Origin: an uncultured delta proteobacterium
Lineage (GTDB): Bacteria > Myxococcota_A > Polyangia > Palsa-1104
Assembly (NCBI GenBank): GCA_963785725.1
Contig: CAWAWS010000028.1
Coordinates: 1-18,851 of the forward strand
Length of the DNA: 18,851 nucleotides
Reading direction: 5' to 3'
The notes beneath the pieces were generated by a model that worked only from the letters and a program-made list of their open reading frames with translations, had not been told where the DNA came from and searched no databases. Every line of letters starts with the position of its first letter. Position 1 is the stretch's first letter. The translations under genes were made by a program, and so were the position numbers. Shown one piece after another: positions 5,719-16,134 of the stretch.

Positions 5719-6773
<1,055 letters not shown>

Positions 6774-6982: not shown

Positions 6983-7519
6983 ATGATGGAAACACCTCTG
7001 GTCCGCTGCGGCGGCTGCAGTAAGCCGCCCAGCGACGGTGTCCTGCGCCGCGGCCGCTGCTACCGCTGCTACGACGCGTGGGTCAAGGCGCGCGTCGTCG
7101 GCGCCGGCGCCAATTGCGCGGCCTGCGAAGATCGCCGTCTGACGCACTTGCGCTACTGGGAGATCGGCGGTCGCGGCAACGCGCCCGGCGGTCGCTGGGT
7201 CGTCTTGTGTCACAACTGCGTCGCCCAAGCGGAGAAGATGGATCCGCAGCCGCGCAGCATCGACGGGCTCAAAATGCGCCTGGCGCGCGACCGGCGCTGG
7301 GGCGATCGGCGCGCCGAGGCCGTCGGCGGCCGGCCCAGCCCGCGCGGCGCCGGCCACGAACGGCGCGACAACGACCGTCGTCAGAGCCTGCGGGGCATGA
7401 AATACTTGGACGAGATGGTGCTGGAAATCGAGGCCGAGTTCGAAGAGGTCACCGACGACCAGATCGAAGCCTCGGAAGAGGTGACCGGAATTCACCTCCG
7501 CATCCCCTTGCCCGAATAA
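6983..7519 (+). CDS. Hypothetical protein with four CxxC motifs (putative double zinc finger), DRR/ERR repeats and an acidic tail
   Basis: CGGC, CYRC, CAAC and CHNC motifs; GC-rich third-position codon pattern; fills the gap between the mreB promoter region and the PpiD-like gene (24 bp apart). Confidence 0.75.
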   Translation: MMETPLVRCGGCSKPPSDGVLRRGRCYRCYDAWVKARVVGAGANCAACEDRRLTHLRYWEIGGRGNAPGGRWVVLCHNCVAQAEKMDPQPRSIDGLKMRLARDRRWGDRRAEAVGGRPSPRGAGHERRDNDRRQSLRGMKYLDEMVLEIEAEFEEVTDDQIEASEEVTGIHLRIPLPE

Positions 7520-7543: not shown

Positions 7544-9217
7544 ATGTTGTCGGCGATGCGGCGCAACTCGCGCCACGCAATCATCTATGTGCTCTTCGGT
7601 ATCTTGATCGCAGCTTTCGTGATCAGCTTCGGCCCCGGCTCGCGCGGGTTCGGCTATCAAGGAGTGTCGTCAGCCTATGCGGCGAAGGTCGCAGGCTCGA
7701 CGGTGAGCGAGCAGGATTTTCACTTCGCGTACGTGGCCCTCGGGCGCACGCGATATCCCCCGCAAATGGCGCGCGAGCAGCGGCTCAAAGAGCAGCTGAT
7801 GGACCGCATCATCGAGCGCGAGCTGTTCGCCGAGGAGGCGGAGCGGCTCGGTTACAACGTGTCGATGAAGGAGGTCGAGGACATGATCGCCGACGGGCGC
7901 ATGCTCGTCGTCGGCATCCCCGAGCGCATCGACAGCTACGTCTACAAAGACGGCAAGTTCGACTACGACCGCTTCAAGATGGTGGCGCAGAACCAGCTCG
8001 GCGTCACGGTGCGCCACTTCATCGAGATCGAGCAGCGCGAGCTGATGGCGGACAAGGTGCGCGAGCTGATTCGCGTCGGCGCCAAGGTCTCGCCCGACGA
8101 CGTCAAGAAGCAGTTCGCCGACCGCGGGCTGCAGGTCAACCTCGAGTATGCGCGCTTTCCCGAGCGTAAATACGAAGAGGAGATCGGCGACCCGACGCCG
8201 GCCGAGATCGACGCCTACGTCAAGGCGCACGGCGACGAGCTGAAGAAGAGCTACGACGATCGCGCCTTCCTCTACAAGAACCTGGAGAAGCAGGCGCAGC
8301 TGCGTCACATCGTGGTCGACGTCAAGAAGGACGCGCCGGCGGCGGAAGCGGACGCGGCCAAGAAGCAGATCGACGCGGCGGCGGCCAAGATCAAGGGCGG
8401 CGCCGACTTCGCGGCGGTCGCCAAGGACGTCTCCAGCGACGAGCGCACCAAGAAGCGCGGCGGCGAAATCGGCTGGCGCAAGAAGACGTTCACCGGCTTC
8501 GGCGAGGCCGTCGACGCCAAGGTGTTCGCGGCCAAGGCCGGCGACGTCATCGGACCGGAGCGCACCGATCGCGGCTTCGAGCTGGTCAAAGTCGAGGGCT
8601 TCCGCGAAGGTGACGTGCCGCTGGCCGAGGCCGAGAAGGAGATCGCCGTCGACGAAGTGCGCAAGGAGAAGGCCAAAGAGAAGGCCAAGGCCGACGCGCA
8701 GGCGCTGATGGACCGCGTGCACAAAGGTGAGAAGCTCGACACCATCGTGCCGAAGGAGACGCCGGACGCGCCGGGCACGTCGGCGCAGGAGAAGCAGCTC
8801 AAGGCGCTGCTGCAGAAGCCGTCGGAGCCGGTCAAGCTGCAGGAGACCGGGCTCTTCTCGCGTCGCGGAGACATCATCCAAGACATCGGTATCTCGAAGG
8901 ATCTGGCGAAGCAGGCGTTCGACTTGAAGACCGGCGAAGTCGCGGGTCCGTTCGATGTCGGCACCGGCTACGTCGTCGTGCGCGTCAAAGAGCACAAGGA
9001 TCCGGATCTGGCGGACTTCGAGAAGCGCAAGTCGGACATCGTGCGCGACGCCGAGCGGTCGAAGTGGGCCGAGCTCGTCGACACCTGGTCGAAGCAGCGC
9101 TGCATCGAAGTGCGTGACGACGGACGCATCAAGGTCAACGCCGAAGCGCTGGAGTACGAGGGCGTAGGCAAAGGGGTGTCGAAGTACGAACCCTGCGCCA
9201 TGAAGCCAATGTTTTAG
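7544..9217 (+). CDS. SurA N-terminal domain / parvulin-type peptidyl-prolyl isomerase (PpiD-like membrane-anchored periplasmic chaperone)
   Basis: PpiD-type start MLSAMRRNS followed by a TM, a SurA-N region (AKVAGSTVS...LMDRIIERELFAEEAERLG) and a rotamase region (LRHIVV...GADFAAVAKDVSSD...GGEIGW). Confidence 0.9.
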   Translation: MLSAMRRNSRHAIIYVLFGILIAAFVISFGPGSRGFGYQGVSSAYAAKVAGSTVSEQDFHFAYVALGRTRYPPQMAREQRLKEQLMDRIIERELFAEEAERLGYNVSMKEVEDMIADGRMLVVGIPERIDSYVYKDGKFDYDRFKMVAQNQLGVTVRHFIEIEQRELMADKVRELIRVGAKVSPDDVKKQFADRGLQVNLEYARFPERKYEEEIGDPTPAEIDAYVKAHGDELKKSYDDRAFLYKNLEKQAQLRHIVVDVKKDAPAAEADAAKKQIDAAAAKIKGGADFAAVAKDVSSDERTKKRGGEIGWRKKTFTGFGEAVDAKVFAAKAGDVIGPERTDRGFELVKVEGFREGDVPLAEAEKEIAVDEVRKEKAKEKAKADAQALMDRVHKGEKLDTIVPKETPDAPGTSAQEKQLKALLQKPSEPVKLQETGLFSRRGDIIQDIGISKDLAKQAFDLKTGEVAGPFDVGTGYVVVRVKEHKDPDLADFEKRKSDIVRDAERSKWAELVDTWSKQRCIEVRDDGRIKVNAEALEYEGVGKGVSKYEPCAMKPMF

Positions 9218-9297
9218 CGTTTTTTCGTTACCATCCTTCGCGCTCTACCCTTCCGTTTTTTCCTCCCCATCTGGTACAGTAAGGCGTCCCCCATTCT

Positions 9298-11145
9298 GTG
9301 TGGAGGAGTTGGCGCCTGCCCAAGAAGCGTTCCGATCTCGACCGCACGCCTCCGCATGAGGAGGTGCGCGACAAAGGGGGCCCCCCGTTGCCGGAACCGC
9401 CGCGCGCGCAGGTCTCTCGTGTCGACACGCTGCCCGAGGCGTTGGTCAAGCTGATCACGTCGCGGCCGCTGTTCGTCGGCGACGTGATCGCCGGACGCTA
9501 CAAGCTCATGCAGACGCTGGGCGACGGCGCGATGGGGCAAGTCTTCGTCGCCGAGAACCTCGCCATCGGTCAGAAAGTCGCGCTCAAGCTGCTCAAGACC
9601 GAGCTGCTCGCCGACGCGACGTTCCGCATGCGCTTTCAGCAGGAGGCCGAGGCGATCGCAGCCGTCGAGCATCGCAACGTGGCCCGCTTCCTCGATCTCG
9701 TGGTCGGCGATCCGACGTTCATCGTCATGGAGTACGTGCGCGGGCAGACGCTGGCGCAGGTCATCCGCGAGAAGAAGCGCATCCCGGCGCTGGACGCGAT
9801 GTACATCGCCGAGCGGCTGTGTTGGGCGCTCGATGCGGCGCACCAGCGCGGCGTCGTGCATCGCGACATCAAGCCGTCGAACGTCATCTTGTGCCCGGAC
9901 TCCGAGAACGAGATCGAGCCAAAGCTCATCGACTTCGGGCTGGCGAAGGTGGCGGCGGCGACGAACGAGAAGGGGCTGACGCGAACCGGGCAGATCGTCG
10001 GCACGCCCGATTACATGTCGCCCGAGCAGATCGCGAACAAAGAAGTCGACGCGCGCTCGGACGTCTACTCGCTCGGCTGCCTGATGTTCGAGATGTGCGT
10101 CGGCCATCCGCCGTTCACCGGCGGCGACGACGTGCAGGTCCTTTATCAGCAGCTGCAGGTCAAGCCGGACAAAGTCGAAGATCACGTCCCCGACGCGCCG
10201 CCGGAAGTCGACAAGGTGCTGGCCAAGGCGCTGGCGAAGGAGCCGAGCGCGCGCTTTCAGTCGATGCGCGAGATGGCCGAGGCGCTGTCGCGGGCGCGGC
10301 GACGGGTCTATCGCAGCATCACGGGCGAGATGACGGCCGACATTCCGCGCTCGACGCAGCGGGTGCCGGCGGCGCTCGCCAGTCGGTGGACGGCGCGCAT
10401 CAGCTGGCCGCTCGTGGCGCTGCTCGTCGCCATCGTCGGCGGCGGCGCCGGCTTTTTGTTTTCGCGCCTGACGAAGCCGGCGCCGGTGGCCGCGCCCGTC
10501 GGTGGCGGCATCCTCGTCGTCACGCGGCCGGCGGGCGCCAGCATCGACATCGACGGCACGCCGTTCGGCGAAGCGTCACCGACGATGGTGCCGAATTTGG
10601 GGCCGGGCGCGCACACGATCAAGCTGCGCAAGGGCAAGCTCGGCGTCGTCGAGCGGCAGGTGACGTTGGCGGCGGGCGAGCACGCGGTCGTCAACGTCGT
10701 GTTGCCGCCGGCGAGCCACAAGGTCGAGGTGCGCTCGGTGCCCGAAGGCGCGACGGTCTATCTCGACGATCGCGTGGCCGTGGGCGAGACGCCGACGACG
10801 ATCGAAGTGACCGACGACGAGTTCCACGAGCTCAAGGTGGTCAAGGTCGGCTACGAGACGGGGACGCGCGCGCTGACGCCGGACGATCACGATCCGGTGT
10901 TGACGATGGCGCTGCCGGCCGAGCGCCAGCCGCGCGGCACGCTGCTCGTCGACGCCAACACCGCCGCCGAAGTGTGGATGGACGGCGTCGATACCGGTTA
11001 CACGACGCCGACCTTGGGCATTCACGTGCCGCTCGGCGAGCACATGGTCGAGGTGCGCGACGGCGCCGGCCATAAAGCGACCGCGAAAGTGCAGGTGCAG
11101 CAAGGTCAGACGATACGGCTGCTGTTGAGCCCGGGCGCGAAATGA
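9298..11145 (+). CDS. Membrane-anchored Hanks-type Ser/Thr protein kinase with about 3 extracytoplasmic PEGA-like repeats
   Basis: All core motifs are present: LGDGAMGQVF, VALK, HRDIKPSN, DFG, GTPDYMSPEQ and DVYSLG. A TM (WPLVALLVAIVGGGAGFLF) is followed by PEGA-like repeats (TRPAGASIDIDG, SVPEGATVYLDD, AEVWMDG...GEHMVEV). The exact start is uncertain. Confidence 0.93.
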   Translation: MWRSWRLPKKRSDLDRTPPHEEVRDKGGPPLPEPPRAQVSRVDTLPEALVKLITSRPLFVGDVIAGRYKLMQTLGDGAMGQVFVAENLAIGQKVALKLLKTELLADATFRMRFQQEAEAIAAVEHRNVARFLDLVVGDPTFIVMEYVRGQTLAQVIREKKRIPALDAMYIAERLCWALDAAHQRGVVHRDIKPSNVILCPDSENEIEPKLIDFGLAKVAAATNEKGLTRTGQIVGTPDYMSPEQIANKEVDARSDVYSLGCLMFEMCVGHPPFTGGDDVQVLYQQLQVKPDKVEDHVPDAPPEVDKVLAKALAKEPSARFQSMREMAEALSRARRRVYRSITGEMTADIPRSTQRVPAALASRWTARISWPLVALLVAIVGGGAGFLFSRLTKPAPVAAPVGGGILVVTRPAGASIDIDGTPFGEASPTMVPNLGPGAHTIKLRKGKLGVVERQVTLAAGEHAVVNVVLPPASHKVEVRSVPEGATVYLDDRVAVGETPTTIEVTDDEFHELKVVKVGYETGTRALTPDDHDPVLTMALPAERQPRGTLLVDANTAAEVWMDGVDTGYTTPTLGIHVPLGEHMVEVRDGAGHKATAKVQVQQGQTIRLLLSPGAK

Positions 11146-11155
11146 ACAGCGCGCG

Positions 11156-12157
11156 ATGAAGTCTGCGGCGCTCTGTCTCGTCGGCCTTCTGTCAGCAGCG
11201 AACGCAGGAGCCGAGCCGGTCACGCTGCGCATGGCGGCCATCGCGCCCGAAGGCACCGCTTGGGCGCGCGAGATCAAAGGCTTCGCGCGCGAAGTCGAGA
11301 GCAGCACCAACGGCGAAGTGAAGGTCAAGTGGTACCTGGGCGGCATCGCCGGGGACGAGGTCACCGAGCTGACGCGCATGCAGCACGGCCAGCTCGACGG
11401 CGCGGCGGGCGCGATCTTCTGTCAGCGGCTGGCGCCCTCCTTGCGCGTCGTGCGTCTGGTCGGGCTCTTTCAGTCGCGCGATGAAGTGGCCTACGTGCTC
11501 GGGCGCCTGAAGCCGCAGCTCGACGACGAGTTCCGCAAGGCCGGCTTCGCCAACTTGGGCGAAGGCATCTTCGGCATCGACATGCTGTTCTCGCGTAAGC
11601 CGGTGCGCTCGATGGCCGACTTGCGCGCCGGAAAGTGGTGGGTCTGGAACCTCGATCCGATCTGGCAGGCCATCCTGCCCATGCTGGGCGCCAAGATGGC
11701 CACGAGCTCGCTCGACGAGCTGAGCGGGCAATATCGCGCCGGCGTCTTCGACGGCTTCTTCGCCGTGCCGTCGGCGGCGCTGGCCTATCAGTGGTCGACG
11801 CAGGCGACGCACTTCGTCGACTTGAACGCCGCGGTCCTGCCGGCGTGCGCGGTCATCTCCAACAGCGCGTTCGATCCGCTGCCTGTCGACGCGCGGCAGA
11901 AGATCGCGGCGGCGGCGGCCAAGTTCATGAACCACTTCAACGCCATCAACGCGCAGCTCGACGAGCAGCTGGCCGACGGGCTGTTCGAGAAGCAAGGGCT
12001 GCTGAAGACGCCGCTGACCCCCGAGTTCCGCGCGGCGTTCATGGCGGCGACGAAGACGGCGCGCGAGCAGCTGAGCGAGAAGGACGTGCCGCACGCGCTC
12101 TTGAACGAAGTGGAAAAGATGCTGGCCGACTACCGCCATCACGAGCGAGGGCGATGA
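11156..12157 (+). CDS. dctP: TRAP-type periplasmic substrate-binding protein (DctP family, TatP-like), copy 1
   Basis: Signal peptide ending AGA-EP; motifs LRMAAIAPEGTAW, YLGGIAGDE, GQLDG, FSRKPVRSMADL and ALAYQW. Confidence 0.85.
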   Translation: MKSAALCLVGLLSAANAGAEPVTLRMAAIAPEGTAWAREIKGFAREVESSTNGEVKVKWYLGGIAGDEVTELTRMQHGQLDGAAGAIFCQRLAPSLRVVRLVGLFQSRDEVAYVLGRLKPQLDDEFRKAGFANLGEGIFGIDMLFSRKPVRSMADLRAGKWWVWNLDPIWQAILPMLGAKMATSSLDELSGQYRAGVFDGFFAVPSAALAYQWSTQATHFVDLNAAVLPACAVISNSAFDPLPVDARQKIAAAAAKFMNHFNAINAQLDEQLADGLFEKQGLLKTPLTPEFRAAFMAATKTAREQLSEKDVPHALLNEVEKMLADYRHHERGR

Positions 12158-13164
12158 CGCGCGCGGCCTGCGCCGTCGGCGTCGTGCTCATGTTGTGCGG
12201 CGGCGGCGCGCGCGCCGAGCCGGTGACGCTGCGGATGTCGTCGATCACGCCCGAAGGCACGGCCTGGGCGCGCGAGCTCAAGGCGTTCGCCCGCGAAGTG
12301 CAGTCGGAGACGCGCGACAACGTGCGCATCAAGTGGTACTTGGGCGGCATCGCCGGCGACGAGTTCGCGCAGCATGAGCGCGTGCAGCGCGATCAGCTCG
12401 ACGGCATCGTCTCGGGCGGCATGCTGTGCGAGAAGCTGGCGCCCTCCTTGCGCGCCGTGGCCATGGCCGGGCAGCTGCGCGATCGCGACGAGGCCGACTT
12501 CGTGGTCAATCGGCTGCGCTCGACGCTCGACGACGAGCTCTTGCAAGCGGGCTACATCAACCTGTCGGAATCGGGGATGGGCTTCAGCCTCGTGTTCTCG
12601 AAGACGCCCGTGCGCACGCTTGCCGATCTGCAGCGGCTGCATCCGTGGCTGTGGGCGCACGACGAATCGCTGGCGCGGCAGCTCGAGTTCCTCGGCATGC
12701 ACCCGGTGCCGCTGCCCATCGAGTCGGCCGGTCCGGCCTACGACGCGGGCAAGGTCGACGGCTTCATCGCCATTCCGTCGGCGGCGCTGGCGTTTCAATG
12801 GTCGACGCAGGCGCGCTACGTGACCGAGCTGCGCATCGGCTATCTCGTCGGCTGCATGCTGATCTCGCGGCGCGCCTGGGATCCGATCGGCCACGACGAT
12901 CGCGAGATCATGCGCACGGCGGCGGCGAAGATGCGCATGCGCATGGAGGATTCGATCCGGCAGATGGACACGAACCTCGTCAACGGGCTGTTCGCGAAAC
13001 AGGGCATGACGACGGTGCCGTTGTCGCGCGATCTGCAGACCGAGTTCGTGCAGCTGGCGCGGACGTCGCAAAAAGTCGTGCAACAAATGGTGCCGCCGGG
13101 CGTCCTCGAGCGCATGGCCGGCTGGCTCGCCGACTATCGACAACATCGTGCGCAGCGTCAGTAA
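12154..13164 (+). CDS. dctP: TRAP-type periplasmic substrate-binding protein (DctP family, TatP-like), copy 2
   Basis: The true start is ATG 12154 (ATGA overlap with the copy 1 stop), not 11635. Signal peptide ending ARA-EP; motifs TPEGTAW, GGIAGDE, DQLDG and ALAFQW. Confidence 0.85.
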   Translation: MTRAACAVGVVLMLCGGGARAEPVTLRMSSITPEGTAWARELKAFAREVQSETRDNVRIKWYLGGIAGDEFAQHERVQRDQLDGIVSGGMLCEKLAPSLRAVAMAGQLRDRDEADFVVNRLRSTLDDELLQAGYINLSESGMGFSLVFSKTPVRTLADLQRLHPWLWAHDESLARQLEFLGMHPVPLPIESAGPAYDAGKVDGFIAIPSAALAFQWSTQARYVTELRIGYLVGCMLISRRAWDPIGHDDREIMRTAAAKMRMRMEDSIRQMDTNLVNGLFAKQGMTTVPLSRDLQTEFVQLARTSQKVVQQMVPPGVLERMAGWLADYRQHRAQRQ

Positions 13165-14173
13165 TTGCGCAGCGGCGCTGATCGTGGCCGCGCTGTTGGC
13201 GCGCGTGGCGCACGCCGATCCCATCGTGCTGCGCTTCGGCACCGTCGCGCCCGAAGGCACGGCGTGGGCGCGCTTGGCCAAGAGCACGAGCCGCGCGGTC
13301 GCCGAAGCCACCGGCGGCCAAGTGACCGGCAAGTGGTACTTCAACGGCATCGCCGGCAACGAGCTGGAGATGGCGGCGCGCGTGCGCAAAGATCAGCTCG
13401 ACGGCATCGTCTCGGGCGGCATGTTGTGCCAGCGGCTGGCGCCGTCGATGCGCGTCCTGCGCGTCGTCGGCCTGTTTCAGACGCGCGACGAGTCGGGCTA
13501 CGTCGCCGGCCGCTTGAAGCCGGTGTTCGACGAGGAGTTCCGCAAGGCCGGCTTCGTCAACCTGGGCGAGGTCGGCATCGGTCCCGACCTCATCTTCTCG
13601 CGCGAGCCGATTCGATCGATGCAGGATCTGAAGAAGACGCGCTTTTGGATCTGGGATCTGGACGAGATGTTCGGCGCCGAGTGGCCGCTCATCGGCGCGC
13701 CCGTCGTCGCCACGCGGCTCGACGAAGCGTGGCGCGCCTACGATCATCACCTCGTCGACGGTTTTCTCGCGGTTCCCTCGGCGGCGCTGGCGTTTCAGTG
13801 GTCGACCGAAGCGCGCTACATGACCGACCTGCGCGTCTCGTTCCTGCGCAGCTGCATCCTCATCGCGACGCGCTCGTTCGACGCGCTGCCGCTCGAGGCG
13901 CAACAGGCGCTCTTGGCGTCGTCGGCCAAAGGCATGATGCAGCTCGAGGAGCTCGGCCGCAGCCAAGACGACGCGCTGCTCGGCGGCCTCTTCGCCAAGC
14001 AGGGCATCAAGCCGGTGCCGGTGTCGGAGTCGTTCCGCTCCGAGTTCTTCGCGACGGCGCTGGCGGCGCGCGATCAGCTGCCGCACGCGCTCGTCGATCC
14101 CAAGCTCCTGCAGCGTGTACTCTCGCTGTTGGCCGACTTTCGCGCCGAGCATCGCAACGCCGAAGGCAGATGA
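13148..14173 (+). CDS. dctP: TRAP-type periplasmic substrate-binding protein (DctP family, TatP-like), copy 3
   Basis: GTG start overlapping the end of copy 2; signal peptide ending AHA-DP; motifs APEGTAW, NGIAGNE, DQLDG and ALAFQW. Confidence 0.85.
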   Translation: MRSVSNCAAALIVAALLARVAHADPIVLRFGTVAPEGTAWARLAKSTSRAVAEATGGQVTGKWYFNGIAGNELEMAARVRKDQLDGIVSGGMLCQRLAPSMRVLRVVGLFQTRDESGYVAGRLKPVFDEEFRKAGFVNLGEVGIGPDLIFSREPIRSMQDLKKTRFWIWDLDEMFGAEWPLIGAPVVATRLDEAWRAYDHHLVDGFLAVPSAALAFQWSTEARYMTDLRVSFLRSCILIATRSFDALPLEAQQALLASSAKGMMQLEELGRSQDDALLGGLFAKQGIKPVPVSESFRSEFFATALAARDQLPHALVDPKLLQRVLSLLADFRAEHRNAEGR

Positions 14174-14206
14174 ACGCAGGTCGAGGGAAGGTTGAGGCAA
14201 GGACCC

Positions 14207-15235
14207 ATGAGCCACGCGCGCTTTGCCACCTGGGGTTCGCTCTCTGTGCTGCTCGGCGCCGCCGGCGCGGCCCACGCCGATCCGAGCGTGCTCTTGCGCT
14301 TCGCGTCCGAGGCGCCGCAAGGCACGGCGTGGGCGCGCGAAGGTCAGGCGCTCGAGCGGGACATCGCCGATCTGACCCACGGTCAAGTGCGCATCAAGTG
14401 GTACTTGGGCGGCATCGCCGGCGACGAGGCGCAGATGCTCGATCGCATGCGCCGCGACCAGCTCGACGGCGTCGCATCGGGCGGCATGATGTGCCAAAAG
14501 CTGGCGCCCTCGATGCGCGTGATGCGCATTCCCGGCCTGTTCCAAAATCGCGACGAATCGCAGTACGTCTCGGGACGGCTCAAAGACCAATTCGATCACG
14601 AGATGCTGCACAACGGCTTCGTCAACTTGGGCGAGCTCGGCATCGGTCCCGACGTCCTCTTCTCGCGCAAGCCCATCAGCGACTACGCGCAGCTGCGCGC
14701 CACCAACACCTGGATCTGGGATCTCGATGACGTCTACAAGTCGGCGTTGGTGACGATGGGCTTCAACGTGGTGCCGAGCTCGCTGCAAGGCGCCTATCGC
14801 ACGTTCGAGGACGGCAAGATCGACGCGTTTCTCGCGGTTCCGACGGCGGCGTTGGCCTATCAGTGGTCGGCCGAGACGCGCTTTTACAGCGATCTGCGGG
14901 TCAGCTTCTTGCGCGGCTGCCTCATCGTCACCAGCCGCGCGTTCGATCAGCTGCCGATCGAAGGTCAGCACGCCGTCAAGCAGGCGACCGCGCGCGTCAT
15001 CGTGCGGCTGGAAGAGGTCGGTCGCGAAGAGGACGACGCGCTCTTGGGCGGCCTCTTCGCCAAGCAGGGGCTGAAGCCCGTGCCGGTGTCGGAGAGCTTT
15101 CGCTCGGAGTTTTACGCGGCGGCGCGGGCGATGCGCGAGCAGCTCGGCGAGCGACTGGTGCCGGCGCCGCTGCTGCAGCGCGTGCTCGGCTTATTGGCCG
15201 ATTACCGCGCCGAGCGGCGCGCGCCCGGAAATTAG
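14207..15235 (+). CDS. dctP: TRAP-type periplasmic substrate-binding protein (DctP family, TatP-like), copy 4
   Basis: ATG 14207 follows AAGGA; signal peptide ending AHA-DP; motifs APQGTAW, GGIAGDE, DQLDG and ALAYQW. Confidence 0.85.
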   Translation: MSHARFATWGSLSVLLGAAGAAHADPSVLLRFASEAPQGTAWAREGQALERDIADLTHGQVRIKWYLGGIAGDEAQMLDRMRRDQLDGVASGGMMCQKLAPSMRVMRIPGLFQNRDESQYVSGRLKDQFDHEMLHNGFVNLGELGIGPDVLFSRKPISDYAQLRATNTWIWDLDDVYKSALVTMGFNVVPSSLQGAYRTFEDGKIDAFLAVPTAALAYQWSAETRFYSDLRVSFLRGCLIVTSRAFDQLPIEGQHAVKQATARVIVRLEEVGREEDDALLGGLFAKQGLKPVPVSESFRSEFYAAARAMREQLGERLVPAPLLQRVLGLLADYRAERRAPGN

Positions 15236-15250
15236 CCGCGACAGCGACGT

Positions 15251-15269
15251 CGGCGAACCGAGTTCGCCG
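15251..15269 (+). terminator. Stem-loop after the dctP array (possible terminator or mRNA 3' stabiliser)
   Basis: Perfect 8-bp stem CGGCGAAC-cga-GTTCGCCG, 15 bp after the copy 4 stop; no U-tract. Confidence 0.4.
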
Positions 15270-15299
15270 CACCGCGTCTCAGTCACCGTCGGCAGCACA

Positions 15300-15363
15300 A
15301 ACGTAAACGGAACGTAAAATAGGGCGGCGTCGCATTGACAGCGCGCCGATGCCGGCTAAAGAT
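15300..15363 (+). promoter_or_regulatory. Sigma70-type promoter with an upstream tandem direct repeat
   Basis: Perfect TTGACA at 15335-15340 and a weak -10 (TAAAGAT, 15357-15363) right before the riboswitch. AACGTAAA is repeated at 15300-15307 and 15311-15318. Confidence 0.6.
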
Positions 15364-15370
15364 CGTCCGC

Positions 15371-15493
15371 ACGCCGAATCCGCGCAGCGCGGAGCGGGGG
15401 AACCAAGTTACTGGGGCGAAGCGCAAACCTGCGCCGGGAGACCTCCCCTTCCGAGCCCGTCAGCTAACTCCGCAGGCGTCGACCATGGAGGTC
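15371..15493 (+). ncRNA. Cyclic di-AMP riboswitch (ydaO/yuaA class)
   Basis: Conserved blocks in the correct order: CGCCGAATCC, GGAGCGGGGGAACCA, TGGGGCGAA and CCGAGCCCGTCAGCTAACTCCGCAGGCG. P1 ACGCC (15371-75) pairs with GGCGT (15475-79). P2 is TCCGCG/CGCGGA. Pseudoknot GACCTCC (15440-46) pairs with GGAGGTC (15487-93). Confidence 0.92.
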
Positions 15494-15495
15494 AT

Positions 15496-15735
15496 ATGAA
15501 GCGGAAGGTGAGCAGTGACGAGCTGCTGCTGGCGGCCAGGCGGGCGCTGGCGTTCGCGTACGCAGCCATCGATCGGCCATCGCGCAAGCGGGTTCAGGAT
15601 GCGCGCAAGCGCGTCGTCGGGCTGTTGGCGGCCGTCGACCGCACGCTGTGCGGCGGCGAAATCGGCGAGCTCATCGCCGCGCTCGAGCGCGTGGCTGCAA
15701 CGCTCCTCGGCATCGAAGTCACCGCGCCGGCGTAA
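15496..15735 (+). CDS. Small (79 aa) helical hypothetical protein downstream of the c-di-AMP riboswitch
   Basis: ATG 15496 is preceded by a strong GGAGGT RBS. Sequence MKRKVSSDELLLAARRALAFAY...LLGIEVTAPA. The longer ORF-track start (15349) would translate the riboswitch. Confidence 0.75.
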   Translation: MKRKVSSDELLLAARRALAFAYAAIDRPSRKRVQDARKRVVGLLAAVDRTLCGGEIGELIAALERVAATLLGIEVTAPA

Positions 15736-15780
15736 GCCGGGCGAACCATCCCGTTAAGTCGAAGCGAAGACGACGCGCAC

Positions 15781-16134
15781 TCAAGGATGCGTCGCCTTCG
15801 CGATGACGCGCAACAGCTCCGAGAGGTCGACCGGCTTCGTCAGCACGCAGACGCTGTCGAGCGGCGCCCACTCCGGCGTCGCCGTCACGACGCACACGGG
15901 AATCGCCGACAGCTCGTGCTGCTCTTGCATCTTGCTGCGCACTTCCCAGCCGTCCATCACCGGCATCATCAAGTCGAGGATGACGAAGCACGGCTGATGC
16001 GCCTGCATCTGCGCCACCGCCTCCGCGCCGTTCTCGGCGGTGATCGTCGCGTAGCCCTCGCCTTCCAGGAGCGCGCACAACGACTCGCGAATATCGGGAT
16101 CGTCATCGACGACGAGAACTGGCTTGGCGGGCAC
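15781..16134 (-). CDS. Single-domain response regulator (CheY-like receiver)
   Basis: VLVVDDD, phospho-acceptor region ILDLMMPVMDG, VVTA and LTKP; no output domain. Confidence 0.93.
   Translation of the reverse strand: MPAKPVLVVDDDPDIRESLCALLEGEGYATITAENGAEAVAQMQAHQPCFVILDLMMPVMDGWEVRSKMQEQHELSAIPVCVVTATPEWAPLDSVCVLTKPVDLSELLRVIAKATHP

Follow-up and report, generated by a model that had tools for sequence, protein, structure and literature searches.

What do four secreted solute-binding proteins do when their genes lie directly behind the gene of a receptor-type Ser/Thr kinase? The question is raised by contig CAWAWS010000028.1 (assembly GCA_963785725.1) of an uncultured delta proteobacterium (Myxococcota_A; Polyangia; Palsa-1104). 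This contig was analysed in its entirety, at its full length of 18,851 nucleotides (hereafter the window), and belongs to a genome of 8.9 Mb that is 88% complete. A myxobacterial genome encodes far more than a hundred Ser/Thr kinases, most of them without a known signal. An earlier, sequence-only reading had proposed that the four proteins may be interchangeable subunits that serve the kinase through its PEGA-like domains and are not parts of a transporter. We followed this up in relatives found by sequence, which are metagenome-assembled genomes (MAGs) of Polyangia or Myxococcales. The proposal gained strong comparative support, whereas structure prediction backed it weakly (0.44). On balance, the module is probably a receptor Ser/Thr kinase that is coupled to binding proteins and responds to a hydrophobic ligand.

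Inheritance of the kinase with a binding-protein gene

The window kinase has the features of a receptor Ser/Thr kinase, that is, the VAxK, HRD and DFG motifs, a transmembrane segment, and an extracytoplasmic domain. Its catalytic motifs VALK, HRDIKPSN and DFG are all intact, and the kinase-transmembrane-PEGA gene was found to be whole as previously described (Pkinase E-value 4.7e-50, one hydrophobic segment, three PEGA stretches). Also borne out was the description of the following genes as four paralogous secreted members of the DctP family: all four products matched PF03480 (59-90 bits; cut-off 23.4) and NF037995 (168-191 bits; cut-off 50), scored under the cut-off of TIGR00787, and showed signal peptides of the Ala-X-Ala type when read from the sequence. 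The reported spacings, a 10-bp gap, an ATGA overlap, a 17-bp overlap and a 33-bp gap, are exact by the coordinates.

Kinase adjacency across Myxococcota was one point on which the proposal could have failed, and adjacency proved to be clearly conserved. A single-protein query of 31 genomes with the ectodomain found 34 matches at E-values of 2.4e-43 or lower, followed by a gap to 3e-16, and 31 of these 34 kinases had a gene of one binding-protein clade as the next gene on the same strand. When the whole class was searched with a profile, four more genomes from four other families came in, and in total 34 of 38 kinases were directly followed by a clade gene; because linked kinases had gone into this profile, the single-query 31/34 is the unbiased count. 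The four exceptions were a contig end, a divergently adjacent clade gene, a deleted remnant and a contig break, and in the last case the gene pair lay on another contig that has a 36-bp inverted stretch in common with the DNA downstream of the kinase gene's stop codon. Among 301 genomes of the class, in which 7-10 candidates were scored per genome and thresholds were placed at score gaps, 13 genomes were matched by the profile of the ectodomain and 13 by that of the binding proteins, and these were the identical 13, nine of them from one family. The remnant among the exceptions (L103 2942-3339, genome G011) directly follows the kinase and is an internally deleted binding-protein gene in which the gene start and end are joined, with a stop.

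The link was next seen to follow the periplasmic part of the kinase. At L116 (3676-5457), L125 and P0059, kinase domains from other subfamilies carry the same three-PEGA ectodomain. DNA context is available for L116 and L125, and at both the next gene after the kinase is still that of a binding protein. Since ectodomain and binding-protein gene were kept together through swaps of the catalytic domain, it is the periplasmic part to which the gene link attaches. Furthermore, G274, G424 and G445, which represent three distant families, each have one kinase and one clade gene, and the two are adjacent. Judged from this gene order, the conserved core unit is one kinase with one cognate binding protein, and the arrays are lineage-specific expansions. 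Trees of the ectodomain and of the binding protein for 30 cognate pairs shared five supported clades and were correlated (Mantel r 0.54, reached in 0 of 5000 permutations); such matching, as far as trees can tell, is joint inheritance and does not imply contact.

Three genomes lack the module, and in these ppiD directly abuts a giant tetratricopeptide repeat (TPR) gene. This junction appears to mark the site at which the cassette was gained or lost, and it indicates that the kinase and binding-protein genes are inserted or removed together, as a single cassette.

In a genome so rich in kinases the adjacency might be due to chance, an explanation that was rejected. The kinase profile detected 151 kinases in the source genome (a separate count gave at least 161 Ser/Thr kinases), and only 2 of the 151, both clade kinases, precede a clade binding-protein gene. 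The closest paralogue of the window kinase there, 61% identical in the kinase domain against 41.5% for the next best, is encoded on a different contig, where its gene overlaps one of the binding-protein clade. A further candidate, the kinase-PEGA gene on C7 upstream of another paralogue, was dismissed as no module, a reading frame on the opposite strand being present in the 850-bp gap.

The TatP-derived clade and its departure from transport

The model of binding protein 1 had a predicted local distance difference test score (pLDDT) of 97.3 and the two-lobed fold of tripartite ATP-independent periplasmic (TRAP) binding proteins, to which Foldseek aligned it with template modelling (TM) scores of 0.79-0.88; a search of the ESM Atlas returned DctP clusters alone. 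In sequence the clade comes nearest to TatP of Treponema pallidum, and its closest solved relatives are proteins of the TPAT (TPR-protein-associated TRAP transporter) type (E-value 7e-27). In phylogeny the clade was monophyletic and separate from canonical TatP, with a Shimodaira-Hasegawa-like approximate likelihood ratio test (SH-aLRT) support of 100 that carries a long-branch warning. Taken together, sequence and tree place the four window genes in an orphan clade derived from TatP of the TRAP family.

The count of dctP versus dctM genes in the source genome, proposed earlier as a check, came to 15 versus 2. Along with the 15 DctP-family and 2 dctM genes, 2 dctQ and 3 tatT genes scored above cut-off. 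Two of the DctP-family genes are in complete tatT-tatP-dctQM loci, one is a lone canonical TatP, and 12 fall in one clade, the members of which are 41-55% identical to the window proteins and never adjoin dctQM (0 of 12). Across 31 genomes, DctM copies numbered 0-3 in each, and five of these genomes gave 25-37 matches to the clade profile, 2-4 of them canonical. The lone canonical-type TatP (L015 9798-10751, G000:C25) has a very short leader and neither tatT nor dctQM adjoining, and orthologue-like third copies are present in relatives. In G460, 31 DctP-like matches were found on contig C722 and others, 28 of them weak against the clade profile and six on one small contig; by these scores they are an independent expansion of another subfamily.

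The four mature window proteins are 42-58% identical to one another. Orthologous arrays in relatives comprise five or six genes, which include separate orthologues for each of the four window genes, and this, with the low identity, led us to reject a recent tandem duplication. Fusions of a binding protein with a kinase were sought among longer proteins; the single match in 8000 candidates was a frameshifted read across an array and was rejected as an artefact, which is weak evidence for the absence of fusions.

Several positions separate the clade from canonical TatP. A Cys pair, C70 and C212, is invariant in the clade (123 of 123) and absent from the canonical TatP of the class (0 of 34), and it probably forms a disulfide. 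At the position of the conserved carboxylate-binding Arg (R147 of SiaP) the clade has Trp143, in 95% of 123 sequences; TatP homologues are described as mostly lacking this Arg (PMC5812351). Docking of SiaP on the QM membrane subunits is reported to require E172, a residue of its C-lobe (PMC9352664). The equivalent position, mapped by its 25-residue spacing from the Arg in the alignments, was acidic in 60 of 123 clade proteins versus 33 of 34 canonical TatP, and the [LM]x[TS]G motif after it was found in none of the 123 versus 30 of the 34, the two sets having an equal mean identity of 45%. The C-lobe helix that lost the motif would be the DctM-docking surface. Further conserved residues are common to cognate, array and lone members of the clade; clade-specific positions of this kind are R19, R89, E91, D250, L253, F258 and R308 (numbering of the mature protein). 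A PxAALAFQWS segment is also conserved, with Q193 present in 24 of 24 rows found by other routes; this conservation is partly circular, the segment having served as a search pattern, and we do not lean on it.

The gene neighbourhoods agree with the loss of these features. No match to tatT, dctQ or dctM was found within up to 6 kb of any of 74 clade loci, compared with 29 of 30 checked canonical TatP loci that adjoin tatT. The earlier statement that the window holds no dctQ, dctM or tatT gene stands (none was found), but it does not extend to the relatives, where a divergent tatT occurs in the continuation of the same gene run. This run leads from the array through the giant TPR gene to the divergent tatT. 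Its tail in the source genome lies on another contig (G000:C25:26013-37078, L014 8014 to L015 4079), which encodes a TPR-like giant protein of 3403 amino acids and then a divergent TatT lipoprotein. An orthologue of the last array member of the relatives precedes the giant gene there, and the array of the source genome thus appears to be split. In sum, by profile and fold the window proteins are of the DctP family, yet in gene context and motifs they do not match a TRAP or TPAT transporter system.

Proposed mechanism and competing explanations

We propose that a TatP-derived periplasmic protein would catch a ligand, probably hydrophobic, with a fatty acid or another lipid as the best guess. 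The ligand would close the binding protein, and the closed form would dock on the three PEGA domains of the kinase. RD-type kinases are taken to be activated upon dimerisation, and by analogy with its family the window kinase would presumably be switched by docking in this way. More tentatively, and with the balance of probability against it, the 25-35 diversified proteins, arrayed or single, may report different cues to a few three-PEGA kinases, amounting to combinatorial lipid sensing.

The sequence-only reading had proposed predicting a complex of the PEGA region with each of the four proteins; protein 1 alone was modelled. Its complex with the ectodomain scored 0.44 (runs 0.31, 0.44 and 0.66), a weak pass compared with 0.00 for all three controls; contacts agreed between runs by at least 71%, and the pLDDT of the partners was at least 89. 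In the calibration, which is only roughly valid for the alignments used here, 18 of 157 solved complexes passed with a score of 0.60 or lower, as did the only 2 of 215 mismatches that passed at all; the complex was predicted without ligand. Foldseek returned for the ectodomain only poor matches from the PDB to pilin or Ig-like repeats (TM scores up to 0.35), and as no close solved structure was found, memory of a similar complex is unlikely to explain the score. The model thus weakly supports a direct contact between protein 1 and the ectodomain.

A number of observations weigh against our proposal. In the DNA examined, up to 6 kb per side with some contigs short, a clade kinase is missing from 51 of 74 clade loci, and 7 of the 12 clade members of the source genome are not near one; such lone paralogues would need to work in trans or have another function. 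A scan of 35 of their 43 same-strand neighbours found no second partner that recurs. In G002, G003, G004 and G010, the orthologous array is followed, approximately 10 kb further downstream, by the gene of a divergent TatT lipoprotein. One sister module of the relatives (L134 4117-15141, and L135), consisting of a FadL-type gene, a kinase and two binding proteins, lies three genes from a complete tatT-tatP-dctQM locus and is possibly the birthplace of the clade; the FadL-type gene is directly upstream of this module in four relatives (Pfam-confirmed in two). Myxobacterial TatT is reported to bind long-chain fatty acids (PMC11713862). Although the FadL-type gene and the nearby TPAT locus thereby fit a hydrophobic ligand, the same arrangement keeps a lipid-shuttle role alive. 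Likewise, neither the acidic residue nor the LQTG motif is present in the TatP of T. pallidum, a protein that is ascribed to a TPAT transporter, and loss of the motif therefore does not prove loss of transport. The predicted complex gives no interface, and one of its three runs fell just under the mark. Finally, the genomes compared are related, and the class-wide scoring covered 7-10 candidates per genome under thresholds that we set.

The proteins might instead be constitutive partners of the ectodomain, regulators or scaffolds such as inhibitory lids, chaperones or readers of protein or envelope cues, and not sensors of small molecules. All linkage results fit this explanation equally well, the complex reached its weak score with no ligand present, and the invariant Cys pair (123/123 versus 0/34) could serve to rigidify the fold. 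The intact two-lobed fold speaks for ligand capture, however, and many stably inherited paralogues would suit diversification of ligands better than a fixed lid; we regard constitutive partnership as unlikely. A role in transport or lipid shuttling, with TatT and DctQM supplied from elsewhere and the kinase as a co-transcribed regulator only, draws on the two complete tatT-tatP-dctQM loci of the source genome, on DctM in 30 of 31 relatives, on the divergent tatT in the same gene run of four relatives and on the module near a TPAT locus. Those DctQM loci have their own TatP, though, in which the docking-helix motif lost from the clade is kept, the number of DctM genes does not track the expansion of the clade, and the divergent tatT occurs also in G005, where the module is absent. 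With the clade confined to genomes that have the kinase clade (13 of 13), we hold the transport explanation to be quite improbable.

Regulation alone might also join the genes, the kinase sensing some other signal while the proteins, as free periplasmic lipid sinks or decoys within its regulon, make no contact with it. That most paralogues stand alone in unrelated neighbourhoods and that the predicted complex is weak would be expected under such an arrangement. It leaves poorly explained that the link follows the ectodomain through the swaps of the catalytic domain, that one-to-one pairs persist in three distant families, and that all three complex controls scored 0.00, and we consider it very unlikely. 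The binding-protein-coupled receptor kinase is accordingly the explanation that we carry into the comparison with known systems.

The window and its relation to known systems

The features of the locus are collected in Table 1. The start of the kinase gene has three candidates, a GTG at 9298, a CTG at 9316 after GGAGG, and position 9364, which was chosen by the gene caller; the true start may be further downstream than 9298. The array had been said to end in a hairpin, and a hairpin core was indeed found (z -2.68; equally good in 3 of 200 shuffles), but it has no U tract and was not among the calls of a terminator scan. A scan of 9000-15800 for sigma-70-like promoters gave no sites and is uninformative for a high-GC host.

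Table 1. Features of the kinase and binding-protein locus (window coordinates)
Feature	Coordinates	Strand	Remarks
Receptor-type Hanks Ser/Thr kinase gene	9298..11145	+	Kinase domain amino acids 68-322, one transmembrane segment, three PEGA; start uncertain
Predicted single transmembrane segment, approximately amino acids 370-390	10405..10467	+	Hydropathy maximum 2.07 at amino acid 371
Three-PEGA all-beta ectodomain	10498..11142	+	pLDDT 95.4; defines the kinase clade linked to binding proteins
Orphan TatP-derived binding protein 1, cognate gene directly 3' of kinase	11156..12157	+	
Orphan TatP-derived binding protein 2	12154..13164	+	ATGA overlap; orthologues in relatives' arrays
Orphan TatP-derived binding protein 3	13148..14173	+	17-bp overlap; orthologues in relatives' arrays
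Orphan TatP-derived binding protein 4	14207..15235	+	33-bp gap; orthologues in relatives' arrays
GC-rich hairpin core after last binding-protein gene	15251..15269	+	Without U tract; candidate terminator
ppiD/surA-like periplasmic chaperone gene (context)	7544..9217	+	

Elsewhere in the window, mreB (5811-6755, minus strand) heads an mreB-mreC-(mreD-like)-pbp2-rodA cluster. It encodes 314 amino acids versus 344 in relatives, its frame being lost near the 3' end, probably through single-base insertions that are an assembly error in an essential gene. A 178-amino-acid protein with Cys pairs (6983-7519) has no match in Pfam or NCBIfam and is kept between mreB and ppiD in the orthologous loci of relatives. 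At the contig start (151-1162), a truncated amidohydrolase-like start is followed by a thymidylate kinase without its first part, and these genes are possibly broken or misassembled.

If the proposal is true, signalling through binding proteins, so far exemplified by histidine kinases and chemoreceptors and by a single Ser/Thr case, an indirect one, would extend directly to a receptor Ser/Thr kinase. The PEGA domain would gain a function as a docking platform, and a transporter subunit would have lost its transporter interface and expanded as a sensor family. For one clade of kinases, the module points to a candidate input and to a partner that can be tested, and although the hosts are known only from MAGs, binding would be easy to test on the soluble periplasmic domains.

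A direct pairing of a PF03480 binding protein with a PEGA kinase was not found in the literature searched, which covered titles and abstract openings, with subscription papers mostly outside it. Table 1 of PMC8050422 likewise has neither a PF03480 binding protein nor a PEGA receptor domain. In its working, the proposed receptor would resemble LuxP-LuxQ or the DctB-DctS pair. Among Ser/Thr kinases, a near likeness is GlnH-GlnX-PknG of Mycobacterium tuberculosis, given in that paper as the only characterised binding-protein-stimulated Ser/Thr kinase as of 2021, and an indirect one. As in the window, a solute-binding protein is encoded there with signalling genes, and it controls a Hanks Ser/Thr kinase; a PF00497 protein acts on a soluble kinase through a separate membrane adaptor (PMC8050422), whereas the window has PF03480 proteins, no adaptor gene, and a kinase with its own transmembrane segment and PEGA ectodomain. 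In DctB-DctS(-DctA) of Bacillus subtilis, a TRAP-type binding protein is described as co-sensor of a membrane kinase, DctS being a two-component histidine kinase that senses C4-dicarboxylates together with the transporter (PMC6978683, PMC12718363). The window receptor is in contrast a Ser/Thr kinase, and its partners are TatP-derived, have Trp at the Arg position and are expanded in arrays. With the TPAT systems (TatT-TatP-DctQM of T. pallidum, myxobacterial TatT; PDB 3u65, 4di3) the clade shares the missing Arg, and a hydrophobic ligand has been proposed there (PMC5812351, PMC11713862), but its loci are without dctQM, tatT is distant and in one locus type only, a Cys pair is new and the C-lobe motif is lost. 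The orphan Bug/TctC expansions resemble it in that orphan binding proteins far outnumber membrane transporters and signalling has been proposed; in the treatment of these expansions in PMC5812351, a partner kinase is named for BctC alone. Finally, the pairing of a binding protein with a membrane kinase is the arrangement described for LuxP-LuxQ and TorT-TorS (PMC8050422).

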